Shown here: piece after piece, positions 377 through 17,932 of the stretch
How the letters are laid out: every line of letters begins with the position of its first letter
How positions within the stretch are numbered: the first letter of the stretch is position 1
Assembly (NCBI GenBank): GCA_042571645.1
Contig: JBHPFW010000004.1
Location: forward strand, 20,430 to 84,429
Source of the DNA: Nanobdellota archaeon
Lineage (GTDB): Archaea > Nanobdellota > Nanobdellia > Woesearchaeales > JBHPFW01
DNA length: 64,000 bases
Direction of reading: 5' to 3'
The notes under the pieces: generated by a model
Seen by the model: only the letters and a program-made list of their open reading frames with translations
What the model was told of the DNA's origin: nothing
Database searches by the model: none
Translations under genes and position numbers: made by a program

Positions 377-1033
377 ATGGCAGACGATGATAAGACAAAA
401 TCTTTATTGAAATCATATTTAGAAGAAAAAAAAGAATTATTAAATAATTTTCCAATAGAAGACGTAGAAAAAGTTATTGAACTAATTTGGTCAGCATATC
501 TTAACGATAAAACAGTTTATGCATGCGGTAATGGAGGAAACGCAGCTTATGTTGCTAATTTAATCACTGATTTATCAATGCATCCTTTTGTTTCCGAGAA
601 CAAAGACGAACCTCTGCCTGAAAATATTAAGAGAATAAGAGCCATTAATCTTGCTGAATCTCCTGCTACAATAACTGCCTTGCTAAACGATCTTGGTCCT
701 GAAGACATTTTTGCACAGCAACTGATAAATCACGGCATCAAGGAAGGGGATGTTGTGTTTGGTTTTACAGGCAGTGGAAATTCTGGGAATATCATAAGAA
801 CATTCGAAGTAGCAAAAGAACACAAGGCAATAACCATTGCCATTACTAGGGGAACAGGAGGAAAAGCTAAAGAAATGGCAGACCTTACAATCATATTACC
901 TGGTACCTCAACATTTCCTGGGCAAACAGGAGGAAATGATTTCAATTTCCACTATGAAGATGCACTATCTTCGATTGCTCATATGCTAACTGGAATTATA
1001 AAAAGCAGAGTTAAAGAAAAATATCTAAAATGA
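377..1033 (+). CDS. SIS-domain sugar-phosphate isomerase (phosphoheptose isomerase GmhA-like)
   Basis: SIS motifs VYACGNGGNAAYVANLITDL and GFTGSGNSGNI. ATGA overlap with the next gene. Confidence 0.75.
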   Translation: MADDDKTKSLLKSYLEEKKELLNNFPIEDVEKVIELIWSAYLNDKTVYACGNGGNAAYVANLITDLSMHPFVSENKDEPLPENIKRIRAINLAESPATITALLNDLGPEDIFAQQLINHGIKEGDVVFGFTGSGNSGNIIRTFEVAKEHKAITIAITRGTGGKAKEMADLTIILPGTSTFPGQTGGNDFNFHYEDALSSIAHMLTGIIKSRVKEKYLK

Positions 1034-1830
1034 ATCTTACAGATGTCGCCCTGGAAATAAGAAGAAGAACTCTTAAATCACTATATTCAGCTCAATCTGG
1101 ACATCCAGGTCCTTCACTTTCAATAGTTGAAATGTTGTCAACTCTGTTCTTTAAGGAAATGAACATCAAAGGTGAAGAGCGAGATAGATTTATCTTATCC
1201 AAAGGACACGCCGCTGCTAGTTTTTATGCTGTACTTTCTATTCTTGGACATATCTCTGAAGACCAACTACTTACTCTGCGAGAAATGGGAAGTCCCCTAC
1301 AAGGACATCCTGTCAAAGGAACATTGCCTTTAGTTGATGCAAGTACTGGTTCTTTAGGTCAGGGACTATCCATAGGTATAGGATATGCATTAGGAATAAA
1401 ACTTAAAGGACAAGACAGAAGAGTTTACGTCATTATTGGAGATGGTGAAAGCCAAGAAGGCCAGATTTGGGAAGCTGCAATGGCTGCACCAAAATTTAAG
1501 TTGGGAAATTTACTTGTCATAGTTGATTACAATAAATATCAGAATGATGGAGCAGTCAAAGATATAATGCCCTTAGACCCATTAGCAGATAAATGGAAGT
1601 CATTTGGGTGGCATGTACAGGAAGTTGATGGACATGACATGGATGCATTAACAGAAGCTTATCAAAACGCCAGAAAGGAAAGAGACAAACCCTCAGTTAT
1701 TGTTGCTAACACAATGAAAGGCAAAGGAATATCTTTTATGGAAGGAGAAATGAGCTGGCATAGTAAAGCAATGAAACCCGAAGAATATGAATCTGCGATG
1801 AATGAGTTGGGGGTAAAGCCTGATGAGTAA
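1030..1830 (+). CDS. transketolase, N-terminal (ThDP-binding) subunit
   Basis: Motifs SGHPGPSLS, LSKGHAA and IIGDGESQEGQIWEA (ThDP motif). Split-gene form typical of archaea. Confidence 0.9.
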   Translation: MNLTDVALEIRRRTLKSLYSAQSGHPGPSLSIVEMLSTLFFKEMNIKGEERDRFILSKGHAAASFYAVLSILGHISEDQLLTLREMGSPLQGHPVKGTLPLVDASTGSLGQGLSIGIGYALGIKLKGQDRRVYVIIGDGESQEGQIWEAAMAAPKFKLGNLLVIVDYNKYQNDGAVKDIMPLDPLADKWKSFGWHVQEVDGHDMDALTEAYQNARKERDKPSVIVANTMKGKGISFMEGEMSWHSKAMKPEEYESAMNELGVKPDE

Positions 1831-2755
1831 ATCCACCAGAGATGCATTTGGAGAATCACTATTAGAAGTAGGAGAGTCCAACAAAAAAATAGTTGTAGTT
1901 AGCTGTGATCTTTCTGGAGCTACCCGAACAAAAGCATTTGGAAAGAAATTTCCGGATAGATTCTTTGAAGTTGGTATTGCCGAACAAAATGGTATTTCTG
2001 TAGCAGCAGGCCTTGCAATGGAAGGTTTCAGACCTTTTATAAGCAGTTTTGGTGCATTTATTACTGGAAGATATGACCAAATAAGAATTTCATGCGCATA
2101 CACTAAAGCACCAGTAGTTATAGTTGGCACACATGCCGGTCTTGCCATTGGAAAAGATGGCGCTACACAAATGGGTATAGAAGACATAAACAAGATGTCA
2201 GGTATACCGGGAATGCAAATATTTCAACCAGCTGATGCTATTGAAACAAAACAAATAATTGAATACCTAAGTAAAAATAATGAACTTGCATATCTGAGAT
2301 TATCCAGACAGCCACAAGAAACAGTTCATAAACCAGATTACATATTTGAATTCAATAAAGGAAAAGTTCTCAAAGAAGGAAAAGATTTGACTATAATAGC
2401 AACAGGCGATACTGTGCAGTCTAGTCTTCAAAGCGCTGAAGAATTAGCAAAAAAAGGAATAGACCTGGATGTTATCAACATTTCTACATTAAAACCTATT
2501 GATAAGGAGCTAATACTAGAATATGCTAAGAAACGGCCTGGAATTATTACAGTAGAAGATCATAGTATTATAGGCGGTCTTGGGAGCAGAGTATGTGAAA
2601 TAATAGCTGAAGCTGGATTAAAAACAAAAGTTAAACGTCTGGGAATAAATGATTGCTTTGGAGAAAGCGGCAAACCAGAAGATCTTTACAGAAAACATGG
2701 ATTAGACAAAGAAGGAATCATTAAATCTATCAAAGAATTTTCTGAAAATCTTTAA
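1823..2755 (+). CDS. transketolase, C-terminal (pyrimidine-binding) subunit
   Basis: Motifs FFEVGIAEQN and GTHAGLAIGKDGATQ. Overlaps the N-terminal subunit gene by 8 nt. Confidence 0.9.
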   Translation: MSKSTRDAFGESLLEVGESNKKIVVVSCDLSGATRTKAFGKKFPDRFFEVGIAEQNGISVAAGLAMEGFRPFISSFGAFITGRYDQIRISCAYTKAPVVIVGTHAGLAIGKDGATQMGIEDINKMSGIPGMQIFQPADAIETKQIIEYLSKNNELAYLRLSRQPQETVHKPDYIFEFNKGKVLKEGKDLTIIATGDTVQSSLQSAEELAKKGIDLDVINISTLKPIDKELILEYAKKRPGIITVEDHSIIGGLGSRVCEIIAEAGLKTKVKRLGINDCFGESGKPEDLYRKHGLDKEGIIKSIKEFSENL

Positions 2756-2797
2756 GTATAAGAACCTTTATATATTACTTTGCCATCACATCTTATT

Positions 2798-3553
2798 ATG
2801 GAAAAGCTATCAGGAATAAAACATATTTGTTTTGACGTTGACGATACATTTTACCCACTTAATGAAGATCTTAATCAACAACTGTACAGAGTAGCGTATA
2901 AATGCTTCTTGCAAAAAATCAAAGAACAAACCCTTAAAGATATATCTTATGACGACTTTCTGAAACTTTATCATGAACTTGGATCAATGTCGAAACTCTA
3001 CGAAGAAAACGGACTTAATCCAAAACTAGTAGAGAGCTGTGCAGCCCATATTGATAAAACTAATTTTTTTAATAAAGATTTAAAAGTTGTTGAAACACTA
3101 AAACTATTGCGGAAAAAATACACCCTTTCTATTTATTCTAACACAACATACAAAAACATAACAAATACACTTAAACATCTTGGATTAACTGCTGAGGAAG
3201 AGGACAAAATATTTCAGGTTCCGCAAGGAACAACTCAGATAATAAGATTAGAAAACAACAATTCTGAATCAATAATAAAGGAAAGCATAATCAACAGAAA
3301 TCTTAATGTTCTTTCTGCAGAAGACGATGTTAGGTTTAAAAGACCCAACACAGAAGGATTTAAATGGATAATATCATGCCTCAAACTTAGGCCTGAAGAA
3401 ATTGTTTTTGTGGGCGATAACGACAAAAAAGATATAATTCCTGCAAAAAAGATGGGGCTGAAAACCATACAATGCTCTTGGAACAAAAGAGAAAAATCTC
3501 AGAATGCAGATGCCATAGTTGACACCTTCTACCAACTATCAAATATATTATGA
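2798..3553 (+). CDS. HAD-superfamily hydrolase
   Basis: Motif I is ICFDVDDTF and motif IV is FVGDNDKKD. I prefer ATG 2798 to the track's TTG 2780, because TTTATATA at about 2767-2774 lies ~22 nt upstream (leaderless spacing). Confidence 0.7.
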   Translation: MEKLSGIKHICFDVDDTFYPLNEDLNQQLYRVAYKCFLQKIKEQTLKDISYDDFLKLYHELGSMSKLYEENGLNPKLVESCAAHIDKTNFFNKDLKVVETLKLLRKKYTLSIYSNTTYKNITNTLKHLGLTAEEEDKIFQVPQGTTQIIRLENNNSESIIKESIINRNLNVLSAEDDVRFKRPNTEGFKWIISCLKLRPEEIVFVGDNDKKDIIPAKKMGLKTIQCSWNKREKSQNADAIVDTFYQLSNIL

Positions 3554-3711
3554 ACTTCCAAAATATATTCTTATAGCTCCCTTTTATTCTACCTAAGAGA
3601 ATATTGGTTATATGCCTTATTAAACAACTAATAAGCCATTAGAAGTATTGTATCATTAAATGATTTTTAAAGATACAAACATTTAAATATCCGAATTAAT
3701 TTCTTTAAAAA

Positions 3712-4386
3712 ATGGTTAAATCAGAAACATTTGAACAATTTTTGACAACAACCAGCGCAGATATTAATCTGATTTACGTAATCATTTCAATACTTTTAGC
3801 TGCTTTCTTGTCTTTTATATTAAGCAGGATTTACACTAAATATGGTACTTCAATATCTAATAGAAGGAAATTTGCAGGTAATTTTATTCTTCTTTCTACT
3901 ACCACTACATTAATTATAATCATTGTAAAATCCTCATTAGCGCTTTCTTTAGGCTTGGTTGGTGCTTTATCCATTGTACGATTTCGGGCTGCAATTAAAG
4001 AACCTGAAGAATTAGGATTCTTATTTTTAAATATTAGTCTTGGACTGGGTCTTGGAGCAAATCAATTTGCTGTAACAATAATTGCATTTACAATCATAAG
4101 TCTATTGATTATGCTCAGAAAGTTTTCGCATGAAAAAAATGAAAATCAAAATCTAACTCTGACTATTACAAGTCATGGTTCGGGTAGGATCTCATTAGAT
4201 AAACTTACAGGAATACTAAAAAAACATTGCGATTATGTTCATTTGAAAAGATTTGATTCAACCAAAGATTTAATTGATGCTGCTTTTTTTGTCACATTTA
4301 GTTCTTTTAGTAGATTAGACAATTTAAAGAGGGAGTTAAAGAACTTATCCAAGTCAATAAAGCTTACTTACCTTGACAAGGGATAA
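3712..4386 (+). CDS. DUF4956-family membrane protein (copy 1)
   Basis: Multi-TM protein with the family-typical LSIVRFRAAIKEPEELGFLF motif. TATA TTTAAATA lies 22 nt upstream of the ATG. Confidence 0.75.
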   Translation: MVKSETFEQFLTTTSADINLIYVIISILLAAFLSFILSRIYTKYGTSISNRRKFAGNFILLSTTTTLIIIIVKSSLALSLGLVGALSIVRFRAAIKEPEELGFLFLNISLGLGLGANQFAVTIIAFTIISLLIMLRKFSHEKNENQNLTLTITSHGSGRISLDKLTGILKKHCDYVHLKRFDSTKDLIDAAFFVTFSSFSRLDNLKRELKNLSKSIKLTYLDKG

Positions 4387-4391
4387 ACAAG

Positions 4392-7052
4392 ATGAAAATT
4401 AAGAACGAGTCTAAAAAGAAAGGTTTTTCTTCATTATCATTGAAAAGGATATTAAATAAAAAAAATCTTATCATAGTGTCTGCTTTTTTTCTAATCGGTT
4501 TTTTTGTTGTCGGTGTCTTATTCGGCATTTTCATAACAGGATTTTTTGGTACATTTGACAATCCTTCAAGTAATGCAATCAAATTGATAAATTTTTTTGG
4601 ATTTTCACCAAGCATGGGCAGTCTGCAACTATTTATGAGGGATGTTATCTCAGAAAATATCTTTATCCCTGTTAATTTTATTAAGGGAGCTTTTTCAAAT
4701 CCTGAAAAGATGTATATTGATATAAGCTTCAAGAATTATGAGAAACTACTGCATAAAAGAGAACAAAGTTTGAAATTAGGTATTCTTTTTTCTTCAGAAG
4801 AGGATTATGTTCCTGCAAAAATTAGATTCAACGATCAAATTGTAGATGTAAAACTAAGGCTAAAAGGAGATGCCTTAGACCATATAAAAGGTGAAAGATG
4901 GTCTTTCAGAATAAAAGTTAAAGGCGACGAAACTCTTTTTGGTATGGAAGTCTTATCAATACAAGATCCAAAAACAAGGAACTTTTTAAATGAGTTTATT
5001 TTTCAAGAAGCATTAAGAAGAGAGGGAGTAATCTCACTAAGAACCAAATTTATAGAAGTTTTTATAAATGGAGAAAGCAGAGGAATATATGAATTAGAAG
5101 AACATTTTGATAAAAGATTGATTGAAAATAATAATCTCAGAGAAGGACCGATAATAAAATTTAATGAAGGGTTATTTTATGACAGAAAAGTTTTTGGACC
5201 TACAATAGAACAGAAGACAAATGCTAAAGACTCTTATTTTAACACAGACATAGATTCTTTTCAAACTAAAAGAATAATGAATGATTCTATTAAATATGAA
5301 CAATATCTAAAGGCGAAGAATCTCCTAGAATCCTTCCGACAAGGAAAGCTAAATTCAAGTGAAGTTTTTGATTTAGAAAAACAAACAAGATTTTTCGCGA
5401 TATCCGAACTTATGGATGCCCATCACGGATTACATTCTAATAATGTTAGGTATTATTATAATCCCGTGACTTCAAAACTCGAACCCATCGGTTTTGATGG
5501 CGACGCAGGAGAATGGAATCAAGACAAGATTTTTCTTACTGATAAATATACTCCATTTGTACAAAGATTCTTTAAAGACAATATCTTCTTTGAAACATAT
5601 ATAAAAGAGCTCAGAAGAGTTTCACAAAAATCATATCTTGATAAACTTTTTTCTGAAATAGATGAGGAACTTGAAGATAACCTGAACATCATACATAAAG
5701 AGTATCAAAGTTACCATTTCTCAAAAGAAGATTATTATAAAAATCAAGAAGACATAAGGAAATATCTAGAACCCATACAACCTCTGCAAGCTTATTTTTA
5801 TAAAAAAACCTCAAATAGCAGCCTAATCATTCAAATTGCAAATACGCAGGAAATTCCAATAAAAATTCGAGACCTGATTTATAAGGGAATAATATTGAGA
5901 ACAAAGAAGGATATCATAATGAACTCTAAGAAGATAGGCGACCCATTAAAATTCAGATATGTTGAATTCTTCTTCCCTGAGAATTTCGAATGGTCTGAGG
6001 ACATTATAAGAAATATTGAACTAAGTTATCAGATTATCGGAATAGATGAACTAAAAAAGACAAATGTATATCCCTGGGCGAGACTTGATGAAAACTTTAT
6101 AGAAAATGACTTTATTAGGAAAAAACCGAATATTAATGAATTTGATTTCTTAGCTATTGATGAATCTAAAAAAATAATACATATAAAAAAAGGTAGTTGG
6201 ATAATAGATAGAAACCTAATTATACCGCAGGGGTTTATTGTATCAAGCAATAAAGGAACAGTAATGGATCTTAAAAATAATTCAATCATACTTTCTTATT
6301 CACGCTTTAATATTAGTGGAACTAAAGAAGAACCAATAAAAATAGAATCTTCAGACGGGACTGGACAAGGAATAGCATTATTAAATACGGACGAAAATTC
6401 TATTTTAAAATATGTAATTTTTGACAATCTTGCAGCACCATCTTTTAACGGATGGGAACTTACAGGAGCAGTCACATTTTACGAGTCTCCTGTTTATCTC
6501 GAGTCTTGTCACTTCATTAACATCCGATCTGAAGATGCACTAAACATAATAAGGTCTTCATTTGCTATGAAAAACTCATTCTTCAATAACACACTGTCAG
6601 ATTGTTTTGATGGAGACTTTGTTAGTGGATCTATTGTGAAATCTTCATTTTTTGAATGCGGTAATGATGCTGTGGACTTATCAGGAAGCGAAATCAAGAT
6701 AGATGGCATCAAAATCATTGATGCAGGAGATAAGGGACTAAGTTTTGGAGAAAAAAGCAAATTGCAGGCAGAAGATGTCTTTATAAAAAATAGCTATATT
6801 GGCGTTGCCTCCAAAGATCAAAGCCAAGTGAAAATAAAAAACTTGAATATATCAAACTCAGAATATGGTATTGCGTCTTATGAAAAAAAATCAGAATTTG
6901 GACCTGCAAGTATCAACATAACAGGTGTTTTAGAGCTGAATGATATTAAAACAGGATTTATTTTAGAAAAAGGTTCGGAAATAGAAGTTAACGGAATAGG
7001 CATTAAAGATTTTCAAACCGAAGTCTATAAAAAATTATATCCTAACGAATAA
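4392..7052 (+). CDS. CotH-kinase-family protein with N-terminal TM anchor and C-terminal parallel-beta-helix-like repeats (copy 1)
   Basis: The N-terminal TM is LIIVSAFFLIGFFVVGVLFGIF. CotH-like core motifs are ERWSFRIKVKG and HSNNVRYYYNP...PIGFDGD. The C-terminal ~280 aa consist of short repeats rich in N/S/G/D. Confidence 0.75.
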   Translation: MKIKNESKKKGFSSLSLKRILNKKNLIIVSAFFLIGFFVVGVLFGIFITGFFGTFDNPSSNAIKLINFFGFSPSMGSLQLFMRDVISENIFIPVNFIKGAFSNPEKMYIDISFKNYEKLLHKREQSLKLGILFSSEEDYVPAKIRFNDQIVDVKLRLKGDALDHIKGERWSFRIKVKGDETLFGMEVLSIQDPKTRNFLNEFIFQEALRREGVISLRTKFIEVFINGESRGIYELEEHFDKRLIENNNLREGPIIKFNEGLFYDRKVFGPTIEQKTNAKDSYFNTDIDSFQTKRIMNDSIKYEQYLKAKNLLESFRQGKLNSSEVFDLEKQTRFFAISELMDAHHGLHSNNVRYYYNPVTSKLEPIGFDGDAGEWNQDKIFLTDKYTPFVQRFFKDNIFFETYIKELRRVSQKSYLDKLFSEIDEELEDNLNIIHKEYQSYHFSKEDYYKNQEDIRKYLEPIQPLQAYFYKKTSNSSLIIQIANTQEIPIKIRDLIYKGIILRTKKDIIMNSKKIGDPLKFRYVEFFFPENFEWSEDIIRNIELSYQIIGIDELKKTNVYPWARLDENFIENDFIRKKPNINEFDFLAIDESKKIIHIKKGSWIIDRNLIIPQGFIVSSNKGTVMDLKNNSIILSYSRFNISGTKEEPIKIESSDGTGQGIALLNTDENSILKYVIFDNLAAPSFNGWELTGAVTFYESPVYLESCHFINIRSEDALNIIRSSFAMKNSFFNNTLSDCFDGDFVSGSIVKSSFFECGNDAVDLSGSEIKIDGIKIIDAGDKGLSFGEKSKLQAEDVFIKNSYIGVASKDQSQVKIKNLNISNSEYGIASYEKKSEFGPASINITGVLELNDIKTGFILEKGSEIEVNGIGIKDFQTEVYKKLYPNE

Positions 7053-7054
7053 AA

Positions 7055-7744
7055 ATGATTCATCATAAAAACGACTCAGATATGCGCTATGAAAGAAAAT
7101 TCGTCATTGAAGAATTAGACAAACAAGAAGTAGAATCCATAATAAAGCATAATCCTGGTATGTTCTCTGAGATATATCATGAAAGAGTTGTGAATAACAT
7201 CTACCTTGACTCAGAAAGCCTAGAAAATTACAATGACAATTTAATTGGCATGGGTCAAAGACTAAAAGTTCGTATAAGATGGTATGGGGAAACTAGGGGT
7301 CTAGTAAAAAAACCGGTTCTCGAGATAAAAATAAAGAGTAATGAACTAGGTACAAAACGATCTTTTCCTTTAAAACCATTTAAGGTCGATAAGAATCTGT
7401 CTTTAAGTTTTATTATTGAAAAAGTTATTTCAGAATCAAACTTGCCTTTAGATGTTATTGAACACCTAAAAAGCTTAAAATTTGCTTTATTAAACAAATA
7501 CAAACGTAAATATTTCAGTTCTCACGATAAAAAATATAGGATGACACTTGACTTTGATCTGGAATTTTATACAATCCATCAACATAGCAACCCTTTTATT
7601 GAAAGAATTAAATCTGATTTTGTCATATTAGAAGTTAAGTATTCTAAATCAGACGATGATGGGGCTGAAAATATAATAAACAATCTTCCATTTAGATTAA
7701 CAAAAAGCTCAAAATACGTTTCAGGAATAGACGAGTTATACTAA
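7055..7744 (+). CDS. VTC-domain (triphosphate-tunnel, polyphosphate-polymerase-like) protein (copy 1)
   Basis: MRYERKF... (EXEXK-like TTM signature), NNIYLDS and RLKVRIRWY, as in bacterial VTC-domain proteins. Starts 2 nt after the CotH stop. Confidence 0.7.
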   Translation: MIHHKNDSDMRYERKFVIEELDKQEVESIIKHNPGMFSEIYHERVVNNIYLDSESLENYNDNLIGMGQRLKVRIRWYGETRGLVKKPVLEIKIKSNELGTKRSFPLKPFKVDKNLSLSFIIEKVISESNLPLDVIEHLKSLKFALLNKYKRKYFSSHDKKYRMTLDFDLEFYTIHQHSNPFIERIKSDFVILEVKYSKSDDDGAENIINNLPFRLTKSSKYVSGIDELY

Positions 7745-9546: not shown

Positions 9547-10224
9547 TCATACTGCTTCTATATCTCCCGTATAAGATATCAGAGTTGCACTGCTTATATC
9601 TTTTATATGATTGAGCTTTGAGACAAACTCGTTGCTATCTTTGTGCTTTAACCTCACTTCATAAACAGTCTCAAAATGGTTTGCTGTTGAAGTGGTGGTT
9701 CTTACTTTATGATTCCTGCAGTAATCCAGTATCACTTTCGTTATTTCAGGACCTTTATTTTTTGTTGATTTCAGGATAAGTATGTACGGCTGGCTGATCG
9801 AAATTCTTTTAGAAGCAATAACCAATATGCCTGCTATAAATACTGCGGATATGGCTGCTAATCTATAAGCTCCGACCCCGCACACAATCCCTGTCGCTAT
9901 TGACCAAAAAAGATAAGCTATGTCTTTAGGCTCTTTTACTGCTGTTCTGAATCTTACAATTGACAAAGCACCGATCATACCAAGTGACAAAGCTATATTT
10001 CCGCTTATCACCATCACAATTACAGATGTTATAACTCCAACCAATATAAGAGTAACATTAAAATTTTTAGAATACAACACTCCATCATATGTTTTTTTAT
10101 AGATATAGTAAATAAAAACTACTATTATGAGTGCTACAACCATATTCATTAACATCTCTCCTAAAGTGAGTGAACCTCCTTCAACAGATGATATCAAAAA
10201 ATCCTTAATTCCTTTCTTAAACAT
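9547..10224 (-). CDS. DUF4956-family membrane protein (copy 2)
   Basis: Motif ALSIVRFRTAVKEPKDIAYLFWSIATGIVCG. I prefer ATG 10224 (MFKKGIK...), which is preceded by GGGGGT, over the track start at 10260. Confidence 0.8.
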   Translation of the reverse strand: MFKKGIKDFLISSVEGGSLTLGEMLMNMVVALIIVVFIYYIYKKTYDGVLYSKNFNVTLILVGVITSVIVMVISGNIALSLGMIGALSIVRFRTAVKEPKDIAYLFWSIATGIVCGVGAYRLAAISAVFIAGILVIASKRISISQPYILILKSTKNKGPEITKVILDYCRNHKVRTTTSTANHFETVYEVRLKHKDSNEFVSKLNHIKDISSATLISYTGDIEAV

Positions 10225-10235
10225 TTTTTTACCCC

Positions 10236-10922
10236 CTAATCGATTGTTCTTGACATGCAAAATTTGCTTATCGCAGACCTGAAAAAGCTATGCACCTGCA
10301 ATATATCTTTAACTTCTTCAGGTATCCCTTTATTAAACTTGATCTCCATTATGACAAGATTATTGTTTCTAATAGACCTCTTGTCTTTTGGCTCTGAAAA
10401 GATATCAGAATGTGTCTCACTGAATGAAAGCTCCTCATCAAAAGTTATCCTGAAATTATTCAGGGGAAATGAAAAGGCCATCCTTTTGTAATCAACCATG
10501 GTAACAGGCCTGTAATAGTCCTTCTTAAACTGAGCATAGATCTTGTTCAAGATATTATTTTTATATTTGAGCAAAACATCGAGGTTGCCTTTTATGACTT
10601 CTTTTGCATCTTTCCTTGATATTATGACTGTTTCTTTCAATATCTGGTCGTTTGACTTGTTTTTTATCTCAAATTTGACATTATGGTCATCCAAATCATA
10701 GATTCTCATCCGGTATTTGCTTCTGGACAAAAGACCTCTTATTTTTTCAAGATATGCTCTGTTCATTACATTATCGAAATAAAGGCTTCTTACAAAATAA
10801 GGACCTTTTTCTGAATGCTTGTCAAAAGGAAGAACTTTTGAGAGTAGATTGCGCATTACAATATACTCAGGTCTTGTTATGTAATACTTAAGTTCATATC
10901 TCTTGAAAAATCTGGAGCTCAT
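10236..10922 (-). CDS. VTC-domain (triphosphate-tunnel, polyphosphate-polymerase-like) protein (copy 2)
   Basis: Motifs RYELKYYI, YFVRSLYFD and KYRMRIYD. ATGA overlap with the upstream CotH gene. Confidence 0.8.
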   Translation of the reverse strand: MSSRFFKRYELKYYITRPEYIVMRNLLSKVLPFDKHSEKGPYFVRSLYFDNVMNRAYLEKIRGLLSRSKYRMRIYDLDDHNVKFEIKNKSNDQILKETVIISRKDAKEVIKGNLDVLLKYKNNILNKIYAQFKKDYYRPVTMVDYKRMAFSFPLNNFRITFDEELSFSETHSDIFSEPKDKRSIRNNNLVIMEIKFNKGIPEEVKDILQVHSFFRSAISKFCMSRTID

Positions 10923-13666
10923 GAAGCTGCCTCCTTAAATCCGCTATTTCTTAATTTCTCAAAAAAGGCATCATAACCCAAAAAATCAAGTTTTGTCCTG
11001 GCAAAATCTGTATAATCTAATTCGTCAGCATCATAAATAACAGATTCCTTATCAGGATCAAATTTTTGCATATTCTTTGTAAAATCATTATCTTTGATGT
11101 AAGTTACACCTCCTCCGAATATTTGCTTTTTCCTGTATGATGAAATTGCTACGTTATTTTCTATAAAATCATTTCTTAATGCAAAAACTTCTGATAAGTC
11201 CTTAACAGCAATGCCCAAATTATTTTCTTTTATCTTATTGTTGTACAATATTGTTTTTGTATTCTCTCCAATACTTACTCCTTTGTCTTTGAAACTGTTG
11301 AACGAATTGTTCTCTAACAAGATAAGTGAACCGCTCAGATCAATCCCATCTCCATTGTCGTCCCCACCAGAATCAGTAAATTTTGAGTTATATACATAAC
11401 CTTTGCAGAAATCCAGATCTACTTGGTCTGCAAAATTATGTGAGAAATCACATTCAGATATTCTCACAGACGCTGTTTTTATATTAAGGCCGTCATCCCC
11501 TTTATTGTCATGTATAAAACAGTTATCCATTTCAACATCTGAATGGTATAAAGACAATGCACCTATACAGAATATGCCGTTTATAAAAGCATCCGATCCT
11601 CCTGAAAGATCAAGATAAGACACCTTATTGGTTGTCTTTCCATCTCCAATGACACAAAATGATCCAAATGGACCTTTTCCTTTAAAGTCAGAAATAACTA
11701 CTGGTTCTTTTTTTGTCCCTTTTATATCTAGAGGGCTGTAAGATAATATCGAAATTTCAGGCAGTATCTTTATCTCTGTTCCTGCTTCAATTATAAGAGT
11801 AAATCCTTCAGGGATCACTAGGTTTTCATCTATTTCATATGTGCCTTTTTTTATGATAATATCTGTTCTATTTAATTCTGCATCAATATTAAAATCTTCT
11901 TTAAGTGAACTGACTAAGAATTCTTTTTCAATTAAAGAATAATAAAGGTTTTGATCAGCATATTTTATTACTATGTTCTCGTCAGTTAATTCATTTCCGC
12001 TGTACGAATTTTTAGCCTCTATCTTTATGCCAGTCAGATTGATTTTTTCCCTATCCTCGAATGTTATCCTATATCTGAATTTTTTCTTCTTGGGATATAA
12101 TTCTTCATCTAAACCAGTGAATAATATCTTATCTTTAAATAAGTCCTTAAATTCTGTATCGCTTTTTTTTATTTTGTATTCTTTCTTTTCCTGTTTGTCT
12201 TCAATATCCCCAAAATCTTCAATAATTATTACTTCTTCATTAGCTAGGGGGGTATCTAAGATTAACATAAACTTTTCCATATTTATTTCTGCATTGCTAT
12301 CAGGAAAAACTGTGATATCCAGATAATTATCTTTTTGTTTTGATTCAACATAAATCATCGAATGTCTGAAATTTTTGTCAAGAAGATTGATATTGTTCAA
12401 TATTGTTTCATATTGTTTTTGGACCTCGTGTTTTATCCTTTTGCTGCCCCAAAGGATTGTATTGTCCTGAATAAGCAAAGAAGTATATTTTTTATCTAAA
12501 TAGTTATAATGATCTAAAGATTTTTCCTTATTTTTTAATAAGAAATATAATTTTTTATTACGTGATGACCTCATCTCATCTATCTTGACAAGTTCTCTCG
12601 GAAGCGCAGCAACATGATTAAGATTGTGTTCAAATCCTCCTTTTTCTGCAGTAAGAGGATTTATCGGACTTTCCAATCTTGCTATCAAAAAGAATTTTCC
12701 AGAGGAAAGGTCATAACCAATCCTGAGATTAAATAGACCTAAATCATGGTCCTTTCCGAGTATACTCTGCCATGCTAAAAAAGAGGCAGTTTTATCAGCA
12801 TCAAAAAGTTCTTCTAATTTTGCAGTATTATTTTCTGAGCTCGCATTGATCAATTCCATTACTTTTGTCAATATCTGTTTCTCATATTCGCTATCAATTT
12901 CTTCAAGACCTCCAATGCCAAAATCATCATACTCAAAAGCCACATTAATCCCGCCAATATTTTCTGTGCCAATAAGTTTATCAATAAAGCTATTGTACAA
13001 TTTAGTATTTGAATATCTTATCACAACAGAATCTGAAAGTTTGTTCTTTTCCAGGAATTCATTATCAATATTTTCTTCCATGTAATATATGCCTTGAAAA
13101 ACACCATTTTTATAGACTGCAGATAGATTCATATTCATAGAAGGCAGTTCAAGCAATTCTGCTATCTTATTTGAGAAAAGAGGTGCAAGAAGGGATCTGT
13201 CATGAGGAACTATGAAATTTATCCGTCTCATGTTGTCAATATATTCATCATTTTTTGTTTTTATCTTGAATGATTTCTTATAAAAACCGTAATGGGTTCT
13301 TGTTTCTCCGTGAAGTGCCATTTTTACATCATTGTATCTTTCCCCTTTGTAATCTAAGATAATTTTCCTGTAATCTCTTGCTTCTTCAGGTCTTGTATGG
13401 CCTTTTCCTTCTGTTTCAGATATGTTTATTGCTTTTTCAAAATACCTCATATCATTTGGAGAAAGATAAAATCTAAATGTAGGCAAATTTGCTTCAGTTA
13501 TTTGTCTTTTGTTCCTAAATATATTTATATCGTCAACAAGCTTTATCGCGATCCACCTTACCTGAATCAAATTAAAAACATTTCCTGTAAGTTCGTCTAC
13601 CTTGGGAACTACGTCAAACATAAAGACTTCGCTGTGATATAAAAATCCTAAAACTATCAAAAACAT
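10919..13666 (-). CDS. CotH-kinase-family protein with C-terminal beta-helix-like repeats (copy 2)
   Basis: CotH-like FYKKSFKIKTKNDEY. The C-terminal repeat region is paralogous to copy 1 (ILSYS..I.GTK.EP..I motif, followed by D/G/N-rich repeats). Confidence 0.75.
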   Translation of the reverse strand: MFLIVLGFLYHSEVFMFDVVPKVDELTGNVFNLIQVRWIAIKLVDDINIFRNKRQITEANLPTFRFYLSPNDMRYFEKAINISETEGKGHTRPEEARDYRKIILDYKGERYNDVKMALHGETRTHYGFYKKSFKIKTKNDEYIDNMRRINFIVPHDRSLLAPLFSNKIAELLELPSMNMNLSAVYKNGVFQGIYYMEENIDNEFLEKNKLSDSVVIRYSNTKLYNSFIDKLIGTENIGGINVAFEYDDFGIGGLEEIDSEYEKQILTKVMELINASSENNTAKLEELFDADKTASFLAWQSILGKDHDLGLFNLRIGYDLSSGKFFLIARLESPINPLTAEKGGFEHNLNHVAALPRELVKIDEMRSSRNKKLYFLLKNKEKSLDHYNYLDKKYTSLLIQDNTILWGSKRIKHEVQKQYETILNNINLLDKNFRHSMIYVESKQKDNYLDITVFPDSNAEINMEKFMLILDTPLANEEVIIIEDFGDIEDKQEKKEYKIKKSDTEFKDLFKDKILFTGLDEELYPKKKKFRYRITFEDREKINLTGIKIEAKNSYSGNELTDENIVIKYADQNLYYSLIEKEFLVSSLKEDFNIDAELNRTDIIIKKGTYEIDENLVIPEGFTLIIEAGTEIKILPEISILSYSPLDIKGTKKEPVVISDFKGKGPFGSFCVIGDGKTTNKVSYLDLSGGSDAFINGIFCIGALSLYHSDVEMDNCFIHDNKGDDGLNIKTASVRISECDFSHNFADQVDLDFCKGYVYNSKFTDSGGDDNGDGIDLSGSLILLENNSFNSFKDKGVSIGENTKTILYNNKIKENNLGIAVKDLSEVFALRNDFIENNVAISSYRKKQIFGGGVTYIKDNDFTKNMQKFDPDKESVIYDADELDYTDFARTKLDFLGYDAFFEKLRNSGFKEAAS

Positions 13667-13829
13667 GGCTAAAAAAATGCCAGTATATAATAGTAACTTC
13701 TTAGATGGTCTGCCTATATTAAAAACACCCCCGCTATGTGAAAATATTGTCGTCCAAAAAGCTTCTTTTATTCAAACTTGTGTAGTTGAATAAAACCGAT
13801 ATAAAATTATAAACTCTTGATTCTTCAAA

Positions 13830-15143
13830 CTATTTTCTCCCAACACCAACATACCTAAAACCTGTCTCTTTCATCTCCTGAGGATCCCAAATATTTCTTC
13901 CATCAACTACATTTGGCTGTTTCATCAGGAACTTTATTTTTTCCTTATCAAGTTCTCGGAATTCATCCCATTCTGTCACAACAACAAGGCAGTCGGCATT
14001 TCTAAGAACATCATAAGGTGTTTTACCATAGTCTACTTTTTTAAGGATTTTTTTGGCATTATTTATTGCAACAGGATCAAAAGCTCTGACTTTTGCGCCT
14101 TGTTTTTGAAGTGCATCAATAATTGTTATTGAAGATGCTTCTCTCATGTCGTCTGTTCTCGGTTTGAATGCCAGACCCCATATCGCTATTATCTTGCCTT
14201 TTAAACTACTGCCACAAAGATTTTTTATCTTTGGTATTATGCTAATCTTTTGCTCTTCATTAACTTCATGAACTGCTTTGAGTATCTTTAGATTCAGTTT
14301 GTTTTCCTTTGCAGTATTAATAAATCCCCTAACATCTTTCGGGAAACAACTGCCTCCATATCCGATACCTGCCTGTAGAAATCTTGAGCCTATTCTTTCA
14401 TCAAGACCCATACCTCTAGCCACTGTTTTAATATCTGCTCCTGTTTTCTCGCAAAGTCTTGATACCTCATTTATGAATGATATTTTAGTGGCCAGATAGG
14501 CGTTAGAGGCATATTTTATTGTCTCTGCACTTTTGACATCGCAGAACATTATTGGTTTTCCTGTTCGTTCTACAGGCTTGAAAAGTTTGTAGAGAATTTC
14601 TTTTGCTTTGTCATTCTCAACTCCAATTATTGTTCTGTCTGTATTGAAGAAATCCTTGACTGCCGCTCCTTCTCTAAGGAATTCCGGATTAGAAGCAACA
14701 TCAAATTTTATATCCCGTTTTCTTTTGTCAAGTTCTTTTTGGATTATTTTCTTTATCTTTTTTCCTGTTCCGACAGGTACTGTGCTTTTTGTTACTATGA
14801 CTTTATATGATTCAATAGTTTTTCCTAGTTCTTTTGCTACTGATTCAACAAAACTTAGATCAACACCGCCATCTTTTTTACTTGGTGTGCCAACCGCGAT
14901 AAAGATTACCTCTGCATTCTTAACAGCAGGTGTGCTTTTGTTTGTGAAAATAATCCTTTTTTCTTTGTGGTTTCTATCAACTAATTCTTTAAGGCCGGGC
15001 TCATATATTGGAATAATGCCTTTTTTGAGTTTTGCTAATTTTGCTTTGTCTATATCTATGCATATTACATCATTGCCTAGCTCTGCTAAACAAGTTCCTA
15101 AAACAAGGCCGACATATCCAGTGCCATAAACAGCTATCTTCAC
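13830..15143 (-). CDS. ugd: UDP-glucose 6-dehydrogenase
   Basis: MKIAVYGTGYVGLV Rossmann N-terminus and catalytic GGSCFPKD. Confidence 0.9.
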   Translation of the reverse strand: MKIAVYGTGYVGLVLGTCLAELGNDVICIDIDKAKLAKLKKGIIPIYEPGLKELVDRNHKEKRIIFTNKSTPAVKNAEVIFIAVGTPSKKDGGVDLSFVESVAKELGKTIESYKVIVTKSTVPVGTGKKIKKIIQKELDKRKRDIKFDVASNPEFLREGAAVKDFFNTDRTIIGVENDKAKEILYKLFKPVERTGKPIMFCDVKSAETIKYASNAYLATKISFINEVSRLCEKTGADIKTVARGMGLDERIGSRFLQAGIGYGGSCFPKDVRGFINTAKENKLNLKILKAVHEVNEEQKISIIPKIKNLCGSSLKGKIIAIWGLAFKPRTDDMREASSITIIDALQKQGAKVRAFDPVAINNAKKILKKVDYGKTPYDVLRNADCLVVVTEWDEFRELDKEKIKFLMKQPNVVDGRNIWDPQEMKETGFRYVGVGRK

Positions 15144-16528
15144 TTTAATACCTCTAAATTGTCTTTTATTTCTTTGAACTCTGAAAGTATTTTTAAAATT
15201 ATTCCTTTAATATCATCTAGTTTGTCTTTTGTCTTTGCTTCTGCTCTCACAATAAGCTTAGGAGATGTATTTGATGCTCTGACTAGCACCCATCCATCTT
15301 CTATTGTTGCTCTAACACCATCAATATCCAGAGTTTCATAATCTTTTTTTAGTTCTTCCTTTACTTTTTTAACAATCTCAAATTTCACATTATCTGGGCA
15401 ATCAATTCTCAATTCTGGTGTTATTGAATAGGATGGTATTTCTGCAGCCATCTGTGATAAGGTCATATCAGTATTTGAAAGGATTTCTAAGAATTTGCAG
15501 CTTGCATATATTGCATCATCAAAACCATAATAATCCTCTGCAAAGAAAAGATGACCCGACATTTCTCCAGCTAATAGAGCTTGTTCTTCTTTTAGCTTTG
15601 CTTTGATAAAGGAATGACCTGTTTTCCACATAATTGGGTGTCCGCCTTGGTCTTGAATATATTCTTGTAATGCCATTGAGCACTTAACTTCAAATATTAT
15701 TTTTGAGGCAGGTGCTCTCTTGAGAAGGTCCTTTGCCAGAATTCCTAAAAGGGTATCGCCCCATATTATGTTTCCTTGCTCATCAACTAGCCCTATTCTG
15801 TCAGCATCTCCATCATATCCTATGCCCATGTCTGCTTTATTTTCCTTTACTGCTTTTATCAGATCCTGCATGCACTCTGTTCTTGTAGGATCTGCAAGAT
15901 GATTAGGGAAATTTCCATCAGGTTCACTAAATAGCTCTATTACCTCACATCCAAGCTCTTTAATAATTTTTGGTGCTATCACTCCTGCACATCCATTTCC
16001 AGAATCAATAACAACCTTAAGTTTTTTGGCAGGATTCAAGCCTATTTTTGATTTTATCATGGCTTGATATGCTGGAACTATTTCCTCATTCTTTATTTTT
16101 CCTTTTCCTTTTACGAACTCTCCTTTTTCTGCAATCTCTCTTATTTCTTGGATTTCATCTCCAAAAAGAGCTCTAGCTTCATTTATGCAGAGTTTACAAC
16201 CATTGTATTCTTTTGGATTATGGGATGCAGTAATTTGTGCACCGCCATCTGATTTGTGATGGAATATTGAGAAATATAATGCAGGTGTAGAGCAAATGCC
16301 GACATCAATAACATTCACCCCTGTAGAAGTAATTCCTTTGATAAAGGCTTCCTTAAACTTAGGGGTGGTGGTTCTTATGTCTCCCCCAACTGTGATTGTG
16401 CCTTTGCCTTCAAGATATGTTCCAAAAGCTTTTCCAATAACAACAACTCCTTCTTCATCTATATCCTTATCAACAATGCCTCTTATGTCATAGGCTCTGA
16501 AAATTTCTGGATTAAGCATTTTAATCAA
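15140..16528 (-). CDS. phosphomannomutase/phosphoglucomutase
   Basis: Active-site TASHNP and metal loop GYDGDADR. 4 nt overlap with ugd. Confidence 0.9.
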   Translation of the reverse strand: MIKMLNPEIFRAYDIRGIVDKDIDEEGVVVIGKAFGTYLEGKGTITVGGDIRTTTPKFKEAFIKGITSTGVNVIDVGICSTPALYFSIFHHKSDGGAQITASHNPKEYNGCKLCINEARALFGDEIQEIREIAEKGEFVKGKGKIKNEEIVPAYQAMIKSKIGLNPAKKLKVVIDSGNGCAGVIAPKIIKELGCEVIELFSEPDGNFPNHLADPTRTECMQDLIKAVKENKADMGIGYDGDADRIGLVDEQGNIIWGDTLLGILAKDLLKRAPASKIIFEVKCSMALQEYIQDQGGHPIMWKTGHSFIKAKLKEEQALLAGEMSGHLFFAEDYYGFDDAIYASCKFLEILSNTDMTLSQMAAEIPSYSITPELRIDCPDNVKFEIVKKVKEELKKDYETLDIDGVRATIEDGWVLVRASNTSPKLIVRAEAKTKDKLDDIKGIILKILSEFKEIKDNLEVLK

Positions 16529-16543
16529 ATCCTCATTTGTCTT

Positions 16544-17266
16544 CTATGTTGCTGGTCTTTTCCATTCTTTTTTTACTTGTTCATATCTTTCTAATGTACC
16601 TGTGTCAAACCATCGGCCTTTGTCTTCAAAAGCAAAAAGCTTATGGTCCTTTGCCACAGCAGGAAAAATATCTGTTTCAAGCATGATTTTCTTTTTATCC
16701 TGTCTTTTTAATTCTTCAGCATATTCAAATACTTTTGGTTCAAATATGTAATAGCCAGAGCTTATTAGGTTTGATGGTGCCTCTTCTCTATTAGGTTTTT
16801 CAACAAAAGATGTTATTCTTTCACCATCAAGCTCAACAACACCATATTGGCTTGGATCTTCAACAGCTGTTAAGGCAATAGTGATTGTTGCTTTATTCTG
16901 ATCATGAAACTGAAGCATTTTTTTCAAGTCAAGATCAAAAAGGTTATCGCCATTAACAACCATGAATGTTTCCTGAAAATCTGTTTTATCCACAATATTA
17001 AGCCATCCTCCTGTTCCAAGAGGATCCTCTTCAATTAGGTAGTTTATCTTTATTCCTTCAACAGGATTTTTATCAAAATATTCTTTTATTTTGTCTGCCA
17101 TATATCCTATTGACAAATAAACTTCATTAATATCAAGTTTTTTCAAAACATCTATCACATGTTCTGTTAATGTTTTGCCATTAATGTCAATTAAGGCCTT
17201 TGGCATTTCATCTGTTAATGGTTTTAATCTCGTTCCCAAACCGCCTGCAATAATAACTGCTTTCAT
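16544..17266 (-). CDS. sugar-1-phosphate nucleotidyltransferase
   Basis: N-terminal MKAVIIAGGLGTRLKPLT signature. Confidence 0.85.
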   Translation of the reverse strand: MKAVIIAGGLGTRLKPLTDEMPKALIDINGKTLTEHVIDVLKKLDINEVYLSIGYMADKIKEYFDKNPVEGIKINYLIEEDPLGTGGWLNIVDKTDFQETFMVVNGDNLFDLDLKKMLQFHDQNKATITIALTAVEDPSQYGVVELDGERITSFVEKPNREEAPSNLISSGYYIFEPKVFEYAEELKRQDKKKIMLETDIFPAVAKDHKLFAFEDKGRWFDTGTLERYEQVKKEWKRPAT

Positions 17267-17290
17267 TTCTTATTATATTATTTTTTTAAA

Positions 17291-17932
17291 TTATTTTTTA
17301 GGCACAGACTCCCAATCTTTGAGGAATCTTTCAATTCCTTTATCAGTTAAATCATGCTTAAGCATTTCCCCAATGATTTTTGGAGGAATTGTTGCTATAT
17401 GAGCTCCAAAAAGAGCTGATTTTCTAACATGGTCCATGTTTCTTACACTGGCCACAATTATTTCTGTTTCAAAATCATAATTCTTGAATATTTCTGCTAT
17501 TTCCTTTATTAGCTGCATACCATCTTCTCCAATATCATCAAGCCTGCCAACAAATGGACTTACATATGTCGCTCCTGACTTGGCAGCAAGTAAAGCTTGA
17601 TTTGCTGAAAATACTAATGTGACATTTGTCTTTATGCCTTCTTTAGAAAGGACTTTTGTTGCCTTTAGGCCTTCTCCAGTCATTGGAATCTTTATTACAA
17701 TGTTCTTATGAATTTTTGCAAGTTCTCTGGCTTCTTCTACCATACCTTGGGATTCAAGACTTATTACCTCTGCAGAAATAGGTCCTTCAACAATGCCACA
17801 AATCTCTGTCACAACTTCCTTAAAATCTCGGCCTTCTTTGGATATTAAGCTGGGATTTGTTGTAACACCATCTGCAACATATGAATATTTTTTTATTTCT
17901 TCGACATTTGCTGTATCTATGAATATTTTCAT
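17291..17932 (-). CDS. tal: short transaldolase / fructose-6-phosphate aldolase (TalC/Fsa type)
   Basis: Motifs [22 protein letters not shown] and VIKIP. Length of 213 aa is typical of this type. Confidence 0.85.

Follow-up and report, generated by a model that had tools for sequence, protein, structure and literature searches.

A 64,000-nucleotide stretch of the genome of a Nanobdellota archaeon (assembly GCA_042571645.1, contig JBHPFW010000004.1, positions 20,430 to 84,429; hereafter the window, in whose numbering all coordinates are given) carries two copies of a gene triad that encodes a membrane protein of the DUF4956 family, a large protein combining a CotH-like fold with a beta-helix, and a triphosphate-tunnel protein of the VTC type. 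Triad A lies at 3712-7744 on the forward strand and triad B at 13666..9547 on the reverse strand; their products are designated by the suffixes _A and _B (Table 1). Both copies consist of the same three families, adjacent and co-oriented, inside a surface-polysaccharide cluster. An earlier note made from the DNA sequence alone had singled out triad A as a candidate membrane-coupled polyphosphate or phosphotransfer system, and had overlooked triad B. The three adjacent open reading frames (ORFs) of triad A were found at exactly the positions it gave, with intergenic gaps of 5 and 2 nt, and hidden Markov model (HMM) searches place its DUF4956, CotH and VTC assignments all above the Pfam cut-offs. 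The NCBI annotation starts the triad A VTC gene at Met10 (7082), which yields a protein of 220 amino acids (aa) and would widen the second gap to 29 nt; VTC residue numbers (K6, R64, R66, etc.) follow this 220-aa numbering.

Table 1. Positions of the two triads, of the predicted domains of CotH_A and of the flippase gene between the triads.
Feature	Position in window	Strand	Basis
Triad A DUF4956 membrane protein, 224 aa	3712..4386	+	PF16316
Triad A CotH-like/beta-helix protein, predicted type II membrane-anchored, 886 aa	4392..7052	+	PF08757
CotH-fold domain of CotH_A, ~residues 100-460	4689-5771	+	AlphaFold2 model
Beta-sandwich of CotH_A, ~residues 465-560		+	AlphaFold2 model
Right-handed beta-helix of CotH_A, ~280 aa, ~residues 590-870	6159-7001	+	AlphaFold2 model
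Triad A VTC-type triphosphate-tunnel protein, soluble, 229 aa	7055..7744	+	PF09359
Triad B DUF4956 paralogue, 237 aa counted from TTG start	9547..10260	-	PF16316
Triad B VTC paralogue, 228 aa	10236..10922	-	PF09359
Triad B CotH-like/beta-helix paralogue, 915 aa from ATG	10919..13666	-	PF08757 and Beta_helix PF13229
Wzx/MOP-type polysaccharide flippase, 509 aa	7873..9402	-	Polysacc_synt PF01943, E 6e-25; Polysacc_synt_3, E 5e-22

VTC_A matches PF09359 (E 7e-28, 98.2 bits, cut-off 23) over positions 2-234 of the 235 in the profile, and VTC_B matches it with E 2.8e-40 and 138.8 bits; neither protein matches any other Pfam family or contains a transmembrane (TM) segment, as anticipated for a soluble protein. 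A family profile built from 33 homologues, both window copies included, and searched against the PDB (3G3Q/8I6V) matches yeast Vtc4 structures at E 8e-8. Residues K6, R64, R66, K92, Y140, R142 and R153 align directly on Vtc4 K200, R264, R266, K294, Y359, R361 and R373, and K83 pairs with Vtc4 K281 only after a manual shift of the HMM alignment by one residue. In the 33 sequences R2, K6, R64, R66, K83, K92, Y140 and R142 are invariant and R153 is nearly so; the tunnel residues of the Vtc4 type are thus present on alignment, as the earlier note required for a catalytic triphosphate tunnel metalloenzyme (TTM). Its description of the RYERKF strand (nt 7085-7102) as an EXEXK-type signature has to be corrected: the strand reads RxExK, with an invariant first Arg that aligns with Vtc4 R196 and a Lys that aligns with K200. 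Residues R264, R266 and E426 are those mutated to inactivate yeast VTC (PMC9911596). The alignment of this profile with Vtc4 ends near residue ~390, before E426, S457 and K458, and a C-terminal VTC sub-profile searched against the PDB with the aim of mapping E426 and K458 returned no Vtc match; invariant E184, K186, S210 and K211 on the C-terminal side of the 33-sequence alignment probably correspond to E426 and S457/K458.

The DUF4956 proteins also match their family well above the cut-off of 30.6 bits (PF16316; DUF4956_A, E 2.7e-15 and 56.9 bits; DUF4956_B, E 4.9e-16 and 59.4 bits). In the AlphaFold2 model of DUF4956_A (predicted local distance difference test, pLDDT, 76), five TM helices, in line with the multi-TM protein noted before, are followed by a C-terminal beta-alpha-beta-beta-alpha-beta domain (residues 146-222) that resembles ACT and PII-like folds (TM-score 0.5-0.7, weak E-values). 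The motif SIVRFRAAIKEPEE (nt 3970-4011), singled out earlier as invariant-looking, is at the cytoplasmic end of TM3/TM4 in this model, and its residues S87-I-V-R-F-R-x-A-x-K-E-P98 are indeed invariant in 32 aligned homologues. The longer core, ALSLG..GALSIVRFRxAxKEP, is invariant in the alignment and kept in the triad B copy; it is predicted to lie at the cytoplasmic face because of the positive-inside rule and the helix count. When the DUF4956 profile and the model were compared with the PDB, only the ACT/PII-like tail found matches, the TM bundle matching nothing solved. Single-sequence PDB searches gave no useful match for either DUF4956 or CotH, and profiles were used instead for CotH (5JD9) and VTC (Vtc4). 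The combination of a TM bundle with a C-terminal ACT-like domain is similar to that of the MgtC/YhiD/SapB family (PF02308), of which only DUF4956_B gives a match, and one that stays below the cut-off (E 4e-4, 21.2 bits vs 31.4). The DUF4956 family comprises ~4,500 clusters at 50% identity (E <= 1e-10), and 13 of the 150 best cluster representatives are long forms of ~445-500 aa with DUF4956 in the C-terminal half. Seven of ten such long proteins scanned bear an N-terminal ConA-like lectin domain (PF06439), and three contain DUF4956 alone. In two Anaerolineales genome loci, a lectin-DUF4956 fusion has a signal peptide ahead of it and no CotH gene nearby. Because these fusions carry a signal peptide, the N-terminus of DUF4956 is predicted to be fixed on the outside, and the homologues tie the family to extracellular glycan. 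Lectin-fused proteins, with a domain of the 3-keto-disaccharide-hydrolase/ConA-like type, were recorded as L059 (6564-7943), L070, P0386, P0392, P0394, P0401, P0402, P0408 and P0412.

CotH_A matches PF08757 with E 4e-11 and 43.4 bits and CotH_B with E 5e-13 and 49.6 bits (cut-off 23.8), low scores (43-50 bits) compared with the 140-210 of the CotH proteins of Firmicutes cassettes. A beta-helix is recognized in CotH_B by Beta_helix PF13229 (E 2e-11) and NosD (E 2e-5), and in CotH_A by a sub-threshold NosD/beta-helix match. In the AlphaFold2 model of CotH_A (pLDDT 89), a domain with the CotH fold is followed by a beta-sandwich and then by a right-handed beta-helix; the last bears out the parallel-beta-helix-like region of ~280 aa that had been proposed. 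The model matches 5JDA by Foldseek (E 7e-13, TM-score 0.70), and the profile matches 5JD9 (E 1e-7). The Lys/Arg-rich N-terminus of CotH_A is followed by a single TM helix at residues 23-49 (nt 4458-4538), and the bulk of the protein is for that reason predicted to be extracytoplasmic, as suggested before. The Foldseek matches of the beta-helix are a GH87 glucanase, phage tailspike depolymerases, the alginate epimerases AlgG and AlgE4, a PL6 lyase and GH28. On its successive coils (window 6500-7000, residues ~715-870) runs a ladder of Asp and Lys residues (D737/D740/D742; N758/D759/D762; D780/K781/E787; K808/D809; K832/K833/E835) whose conservation in 57 cassette proteins exceeds 90% and equals that of the kinase-like site. 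Such a ladder points to a groove for catalysis or for the binding of a polyanion, and not to a carbohydrate-binding module of the generic kind.

The canonical CotH is a Ser/Thr kinase, and that of Bacillus subtilis is inactivated by D228Q or D251A (PMC7821199). In CotH_A, the position of the catalytic Asp (D228 in B. subtilis) is occupied by His345 (nt 5424-5426), within the context GAxH..W.N.RFYYNP, and a His stands there in 93% of the 57 cassette CotH/beta-helix proteins; hhalign places H345 on the Asp of the canonical CotH of a Planococcus cassette. The metal-binding Asp (D251 in B. subtilis) is kept as D369 in the EPIGFD motif of CotH_A, is nearly invariant in the alignment and is present in most of the 57 proteins. 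The conserved site of the CotH fold comprises H345, N351, Y356-N357-P358, T360, E364, D369 and a basic cluster in the N-lobe. In the corresponding region of CotH_B, KDHDLGLFN, a His is followed by an Asp, and a Glu stands at the position of the metal-binding Asp. The short CotH proteins of Firmicutes cassettes, which could not be aligned with our own CotH HMM and were compared by eye and with hhalign, keep the catalytic Asp. CotH_A has the fold of the spore-coat Ser/Thr kinase of Bacillus (5JD9/5JDA) and keeps its metal-binding Asp, together with the Asn and several other residues of the motifs; unlike the kinase, it is predicted to be extracytoplasmic and membrane-anchored, is fused to a beta-sandwich and a beta-helix, and has His in place of D228. 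The earlier label of a CotH-family atypical kinase consequently stands for the fold, to which the 5JDA match attests, and falls short for the activity: because the catalytic Asp is replaced by His, "CotH kinase" is here a fold assignment and not a demonstrated activity. One may speculate that H345 acts as a general base or as a phospho-acceptor. Since the ectodomain would be located outside the membrane, we infer that ATP is an unlikely donor for it.

Triad B is a second, divergent paralogous triad, whose DUF4956, VTC and CotH-like proteins are 22%, 26% and 25% identical to their triad A counterparts. With identities of only 22-26%, a recent duplication can be set aside, and the two triads are long-separated paralogues that belong to different subfamilies. 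In 80 related genome loci, no second triad was found within 8 kb of the first. The order of genes in triad B, CotH-VTC-DUF4956, is the one typical of Firmicutes loci. A metagenome scan for close relatives of the triad B VTC protein returned only relatives at <=35% identity, and triad B is by this comparison a divergent lineage; its distant VTC relatives, too, are followed directly by DUF4956. The first canonical start of CotH_B (ATG 13666; region 13600-13780, reverse strand) halves a predicted TM helix (..GRPSKKLLLYTGIFLA|MFLIVLGFLY..). The reading frame is open upstream to 13771, and initiation at an in-frame ATA near 13717 would place MGRPSKK ahead of a TM helix of 20 residues; the gene has either a non-canonical start or a base error, or is a copy without an anchor.

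The cassette extends far beyond this archaeon. A scan for relatives in one genome per GTDB species yielded at least 570 loci, of which the best 80 were examined by scanning their neighbourhoods with our own HMMs; 40 of these offer full context, with 4.5 kb or more of sequence to each side. Among the best 80 are Woese- and Pacearchaeota, Methanosarcina sp. Mfa9, Methanogenium marinum DSM 15558 and Methanocella, as well as bacteria of the candidate phyla radiation (CPR), Bacteroidales, Planctomycetota and others. The archaeal setting put forward for triad A holds for the window, whose three triad A proteins are 100% identical to proteins of a metagenome-assembled genome entered at NCBI as "Nanoarchaeota archaeon" and which also encodes the oligosaccharyltransferase AglB/STT3 and ribosomal protein S3Ae. 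This setting is not unique to the window, as Methanosarcina, Methanogenium, Methanocella and many DPANN archaea carry the genes as well. DUF4956 stands beside VTC in 39 of the 40 full-context loci, and a CotH gene lies within 8 kb in 33, which substantiates the proposed co-localization of the triad across genomes and makes VTC-DUF4956 the core of the cassette and CotH a frequent third member. Among these 40 loci, the order is DUF-CotH-VTC in 18, CotH-DUF-VTC in 13 (of which three have a second CotH gene), DUF-VTC only in 7 and odd in 2; loci L015 and L069 are genuine exceptions, with VTC and no DUF4956 nearby. In a Pacearchaeota locus (L008, 6554-10709), VTC stands on the strand opposite to DUF4956-CotH and converges on it, an arrangement which indicates that the cassette tolerates inversion of VTC. 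The order DUF4956, CotH of ~900 aa, VTC is also found in KSB1, in Chloroflexota and on a TARA marine contig, each time inside a glycan cluster. A Pseudobutyrivibrio plasmid carries CotH-VTC-DUF4956 in an exopolysaccharide cluster, and a Planococcus plasmid carries VTC-DUF4956-CotH-hypothetical-HEAT-GT2, the same layout as NELoc-2 of Clostridium perfringens.

The three proteins have diverged together. Their pairwise-identity matrices over 51 loci are correlated with Mantel r of 0.69-0.81, a value reached in none of 999 permutations, and for each of them the closest match to the window copy comes from a KSB1 bacterium, DPANN archaea coming next. Because the nearest relatives of all three proteins are bacterial (KSB1), the cassette appears from these comparisons to move as a unit between domains and to be horizontally mobile.

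The surroundings of the cassette are always concerned with surface polymers: Wzx-type clusters, a chitin-synthase-like GT2 operon, Pel operons, pairs of MBOAT and AlgX-like genes, and the block of nucleoside diphosphate (NDP)-sugar, Wzx and AglB genes in the window. The earlier placement of triad A in a surface-glycan block is therefore borne out, such genes flanking both triads. In 17 of the 80 loci, a same-strand gene for a calcineurin-like metallophosphoesterase lies in or beside the cassette (L019/L088, 12695-13771; L020, 5595-6515; and 15 more), a partner that is absent from the window. The two metallophosphoesterases that were read have an N-terminal hydrophobic segment, to which that of M. 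marinum adds a TM helix at the C-terminus. Both are therefore probably extracytoplasmic, a location that speaks for a phospho-substrate on the outer side of the membrane and makes the enzyme a candidate ecto-polyphosphatase. In Bacteroidales and Chlorobiota, loci with VTC and DUF4956 only directly adjoin an MBOAT and AlgX-like SGNH pair (L020, 8689-11384; L074, 4393-7118), the classic module of trans-membrane polysaccharide O-acylation. The order DUF4956-CotH/beta-helix-VTC occurs in two cultured methanogens, Methanosarcina sp. Mfa9 (L087, CP195119.1) and Methanogenium marinum DSM 15558 (L088); the Methanosarcina cassette adjoins genes for a polysaccharide deacetylase, a FemAB-like protein, a GT2 enzyme and a PIG-L protein, and for a surface protein with Beta_helix and dockerin domains.

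The cassette itself is already described in bacteria. Its members were reported beside the pel operons of Gram-positive bacteria, where cotH, "PPP" and DUF4956 are accessory genes accompanied by DUF4832 (bioRxiv 10.1101/768473 = PMC7112168), and the triad is present in C. perfringens NELoc-2 (PMC2879425). In Streptococcus intermedius, deletion of SIR_1592 (DUF4956) or SIR_1594 (CotH-FN3) lowers Pel and aggregation by a mechanism that was left open (PMC12345266). The earlier statement that no function had been demonstrated for the triad accordingly holds for its biochemistry and not for its genetics. According to the same authors, the synteny was not found outside Pel loci (PMC12345266), which the loci examined here contradict: it is common outside them. 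The pel accessory genes of Streptococcus, Clostridia and Bifidobacterium (SIR_1594/1593/1592) belong to the same three families. They stand next to one another in a single orientation, with exopolysaccharide genes alongside, encode a secreted or anchored CotH and a DUF4956 protein described as an MgtC-like TM domain with ACT, and follow the CotH-VTC-DUF4956 order of triad B. Unlike these loci, the window has an archaeal host, shows no pel genes in the part scanned (none of the ORFs between 377 and 37241 matches a Pel family, and the triads are not contiguous with pelDEA(DA)FG) nor the DUF4832 glycoside hydrolase partner, and encodes a CotH of ~890 aa with a beta-helix and a His for the catalytic Asp, whereas the CotH of pel loci has FN3. 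NELoc-2 and an operon on the Planococcus maritimus plasmid place the same triad next to a polysaccharide synthase. The VTC-DUF4956 pair of NELoc-2 is duplicated, its DUF4956 being misannotated as "tubulin/FtsZ" and identified by inference from the Planococcus layout. The CotH of these two bacterial loci is short (472-497 aa), retains the canonical Asp and lacks the beta-helix, and their context is synthase-dependent rather than of the Wzx type. What is new here is thus a cassette that is archaeal, duplicated, fused to a beta-helix, endowed with a His at the catalytic position and located outside a Pel context.

The eukaryotic VTC complex (Vtc4 with Vtc1/2/3; PDB 8I6V; PMC9911596) has a homologous catalytic domain with the same conserved tunnel residues; it pairs a cytoplasmic polymerase with a membrane partner and couples synthesis to translocation, and is as such a natural model for the cassette. 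In the cassette, however, the components are separate polypeptides: the VTC chain bears neither an SPX sensor nor a Vtc1-type TM domain and has no Vtc1-homologous partner. An ACT/PII-like tail on the membrane partner takes the place of SPX, DUF4956 shows neither sequence nor fold similarity to Vtc1-type TM domains, and the target would be the cell exterior and not the vacuole. A functional analogy is offered by the accessory modules found inside polysaccharide loci, such as AlgI/AlgJ/AlgX, other MBOAT and SGNH systems, and phosphoethanolamine transferases (BcsG), which carry an activated group across the membrane and modify the polymer where there is no ATP. The proteins of those systems are unrelated to the cassette, and what they use as donor is an acyl or a lipid head group instead of polyphosphate (polyP).

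On these grounds, we tentatively prefer, while rating it at slightly less than an even chance, the reading that a horizontally mobile cassette for envelope modification, present twice in the window, synthesizes polyP at the membrane and exports it for use by an ecto-enzyme on a glycan. VTC would polymerize polyP from nucleoside triphosphate (NTP) at the inner face of the membrane and hand the nascent chain to an oligomer of DUF4956, whose invariant basic RFRxxxKE residues would form a ring at the cytoplasmic mouth and whose ACT-like tail would gate the process. The polyP would emerge outside the cell, where there is no ATP, and the CotH/beta-helix protein would hold a surface polysaccharide in its conserved groove, with polyP serving as phosphoryl donor or being grafted on. 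The polysaccharide in question would be the product of the nucleotide-sugar, Wzx and AglB genes nearby. The deletion phenotypes of DUF4956 and CotH in S. intermedius and the likeness of the beta-helix to polysaccharide-acting enzymes count in favour of this reading, and the metallophosphoesterase partner, the lectin-DUF4956 fusions and the MBOAT/AlgX-type neighbours lend it circumstantial support. Its sharper form, in which a split prokaryotic analogue of VTC with an unrelated membrane partner secretes polyP and a His-containing CotH/beta-helix ecto-enzyme uses polyP rather than ATP, either phosphorylating a surface polysaccharide or attaching polyP to it, is distinctly more doubtful.

Several observations weigh against export and use of polyP. 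The label of polyphosphate polymerase comes from homology. Since most of the tunnel residues also occur in TTM hydrolases, conservation of these residues is no proof of polymerase activity, and the proposed equivalents of E426 and S457/K458 fall beyond the reach of the Vtc4 alignment. Neither the Vtc1/3/4 channel nor any transporter of solved structure has detectable similarity to DUF4956 in sequence or fold, and the nearest named relatives of DUF4956, MgtC/YhiD, are regulators and not channels. No fusion of VTC with DUF4956 was seen among the top 120 VTC proteins, the top 120 DUF4956 proteins and the top 150 DUF4956 cluster representatives. CotH, missing from 7 of the 40 full-context loci, is not obligatory, and as the clade studied here is without the canonical catalytic Asp that the Firmicutes cassettes keep, the two clades may not share the same chemistry. 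Literature searches found no biochemical characterization of any cassette member.

Three other explanations deserve attention, in decreasing order of weight an exported matrix polyanion, a cytoplasmic regulatory role and a TTM enzyme that is not a polymerase. PolyP might itself be the exported product, a polyanion that cross-links or neutralizes surface polysaccharide (e.g., the cationic Pel) or sequesters cations, with the CotH/beta-helix or lectin domain binding, anchoring or trimming glycan and no phosphotransferase involved. We regard this as unlikely, yet several observations fit it: CotH can be dispensed with in the seven loci just mentioned, DUF4956 can carry an extracellular lectin domain instead, the catalytic Asp is replaced in this clade, the beta-helix resembles lyases, hydrolases and epimerases, an ecto-metallophosphoesterase could trim free polyP, and the aggregation phenotype of S. 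intermedius fits a matrix of polyanion and polycation. The strong conservation of the CotH-fold site, however, argues for catalysis over scaffolding, and the CotH proteins of Firmicutes cassettes keep the full catalytic pair of a kinase.

A regulatory cassette acting on the cytoplasmic side is a poorer prospect. VTC would then make intracellular polyP or consume NTP, DUF4956 would modulate phosphate/ATP homeostasis or the synthase in the manner of MgtC, and CotH would phosphorylate the glycan machinery. The weak similarity to MgtC, the ACT-like ligand-binding tail and the "YhiD" names given to homologues by JGI are consistent with such a role, as are the regulation by protein phosphorylation proposed in the Pel papers (PMC7112168, PMC12345266) and the Ser/Thr kinase activity of canonical CotH (PMC7821199). 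It is nevertheless difficult to reconcile with a CotH whose bulk is predicted outside, fused to a polysaccharide-type beta-helix and deprived of its catalytic Asp, with partners on the extracytoplasmic side (lectin fusions, ecto-phosphoesterase, MBOAT/AlgX pairs) and with an MgtC match that stays below the Pfam cut-off (21.2 vs 31.4 bits). We accord a similarly small probability to the view that the VTC-like protein, instead of being a polymerase, is a hydrolase or cyclase of the TTM type with tripolyphosphate, NTP or thiamine triphosphate as its substrate, in which case the cassette would deliver or remove some other phospho-compound for envelope modification. The TTM/CYTH superfamily is functionally diverse, and most of its studied prokaryotic members are hydrolases; moreover, the bacterial and archaeal RYERK strand retains one Glu of the ExExK metal-binding motif that is absent from Vtc4. 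Against this, the best Pfam and PDB relatives are specifically VTC proteins rather than CYTH proteins, the motif opens with a Vtc4-like Arg, and the obligate pairing with a membrane protein parallels VTC and not the soluble hydrolases. That the adjacency is fortuitous or an artefact of annotation has a vanishingly small probability and was ruled out: the same families are adjacent and co-oriented in dozens of phyla, in three recurrent gene orders, their sequences have diverged in a correlated manner, and the window holds two independent copies.

The cassette bears on how cells phosphorylate or energize chemistry outside the membrane without ATP, and on the role of extracellular proteins of the CotH family. 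A putative Vtc4-like polymerase, a dedicated membrane protein and an ecto-CotH brought together in polysaccharide loci constitute the clearest genomic hint of an answer based on polyP. Far from being a Pel curiosity of a few Firmicutes, the cassette is a widespread mobile module, this subfamily alone being represented in at least 570 species genomes. If the sharper polyP reading were true, Bacteria and Archaea would have here their first polyP export system and, with it, their first glycan "kinase" that works outside the cytoplasm independently of ATP, and such a system would have spread horizontally across dozens of phyla, including DPANN and CPR episymbionts. The presence of two copies in a reduced DPANN genome invites the speculation that surface-glycan modification matters for the episymbiotic lifestyle. 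Cultured and partly genetically tractable archaea that carry the cassette (Methanosarcina, Methanogenium) are possible experimental hosts, and the residues open to mutation are VTC K6/R64/R66, the RFRxxxKE ring of DUF4956 and CotH H345/D369.

The genes around the two triads complete the description of the locus. Triad A is preceded by a GmhA-like SIS gene (SIS_2), a split transketolase and a HAD phosphatase (377-3553, +). Triad B belongs to a reverse-strand operon that comprises, in order, a transaldolase, an NTP-transferase, a phosphoglucomutase/phosphomannomutase (PGM/PMM), a UDP-glucose dehydrogenase, the triad itself and the Wzx-like flippase, the sugar genes ahead of the triad occupying 13830-17932 (-). 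The flippase is the last gene of this operon and lies between the triads, both of which converge on it; AglB/STT3 is encoded at 18349-21660. The flanking genes look like a route to an NDP-heptose or a related sugar, fed by the pentose-phosphate pathway. No glycosyltransferase was seen in the scanned part of the window, the window gave no tRNA or Rfam match, and none of the three families is represented by a model in NCBIfam. Upstream of triad A, 23 nt before the start codon of its DUF4956 gene, the sequence TTTAAATA (3682-3689) resembles an archaeal TATA box by consensus match only. Because this TATA-box-like element precedes DUF4956_A, the bacterial-like cassette may have its own archaeal promoter.

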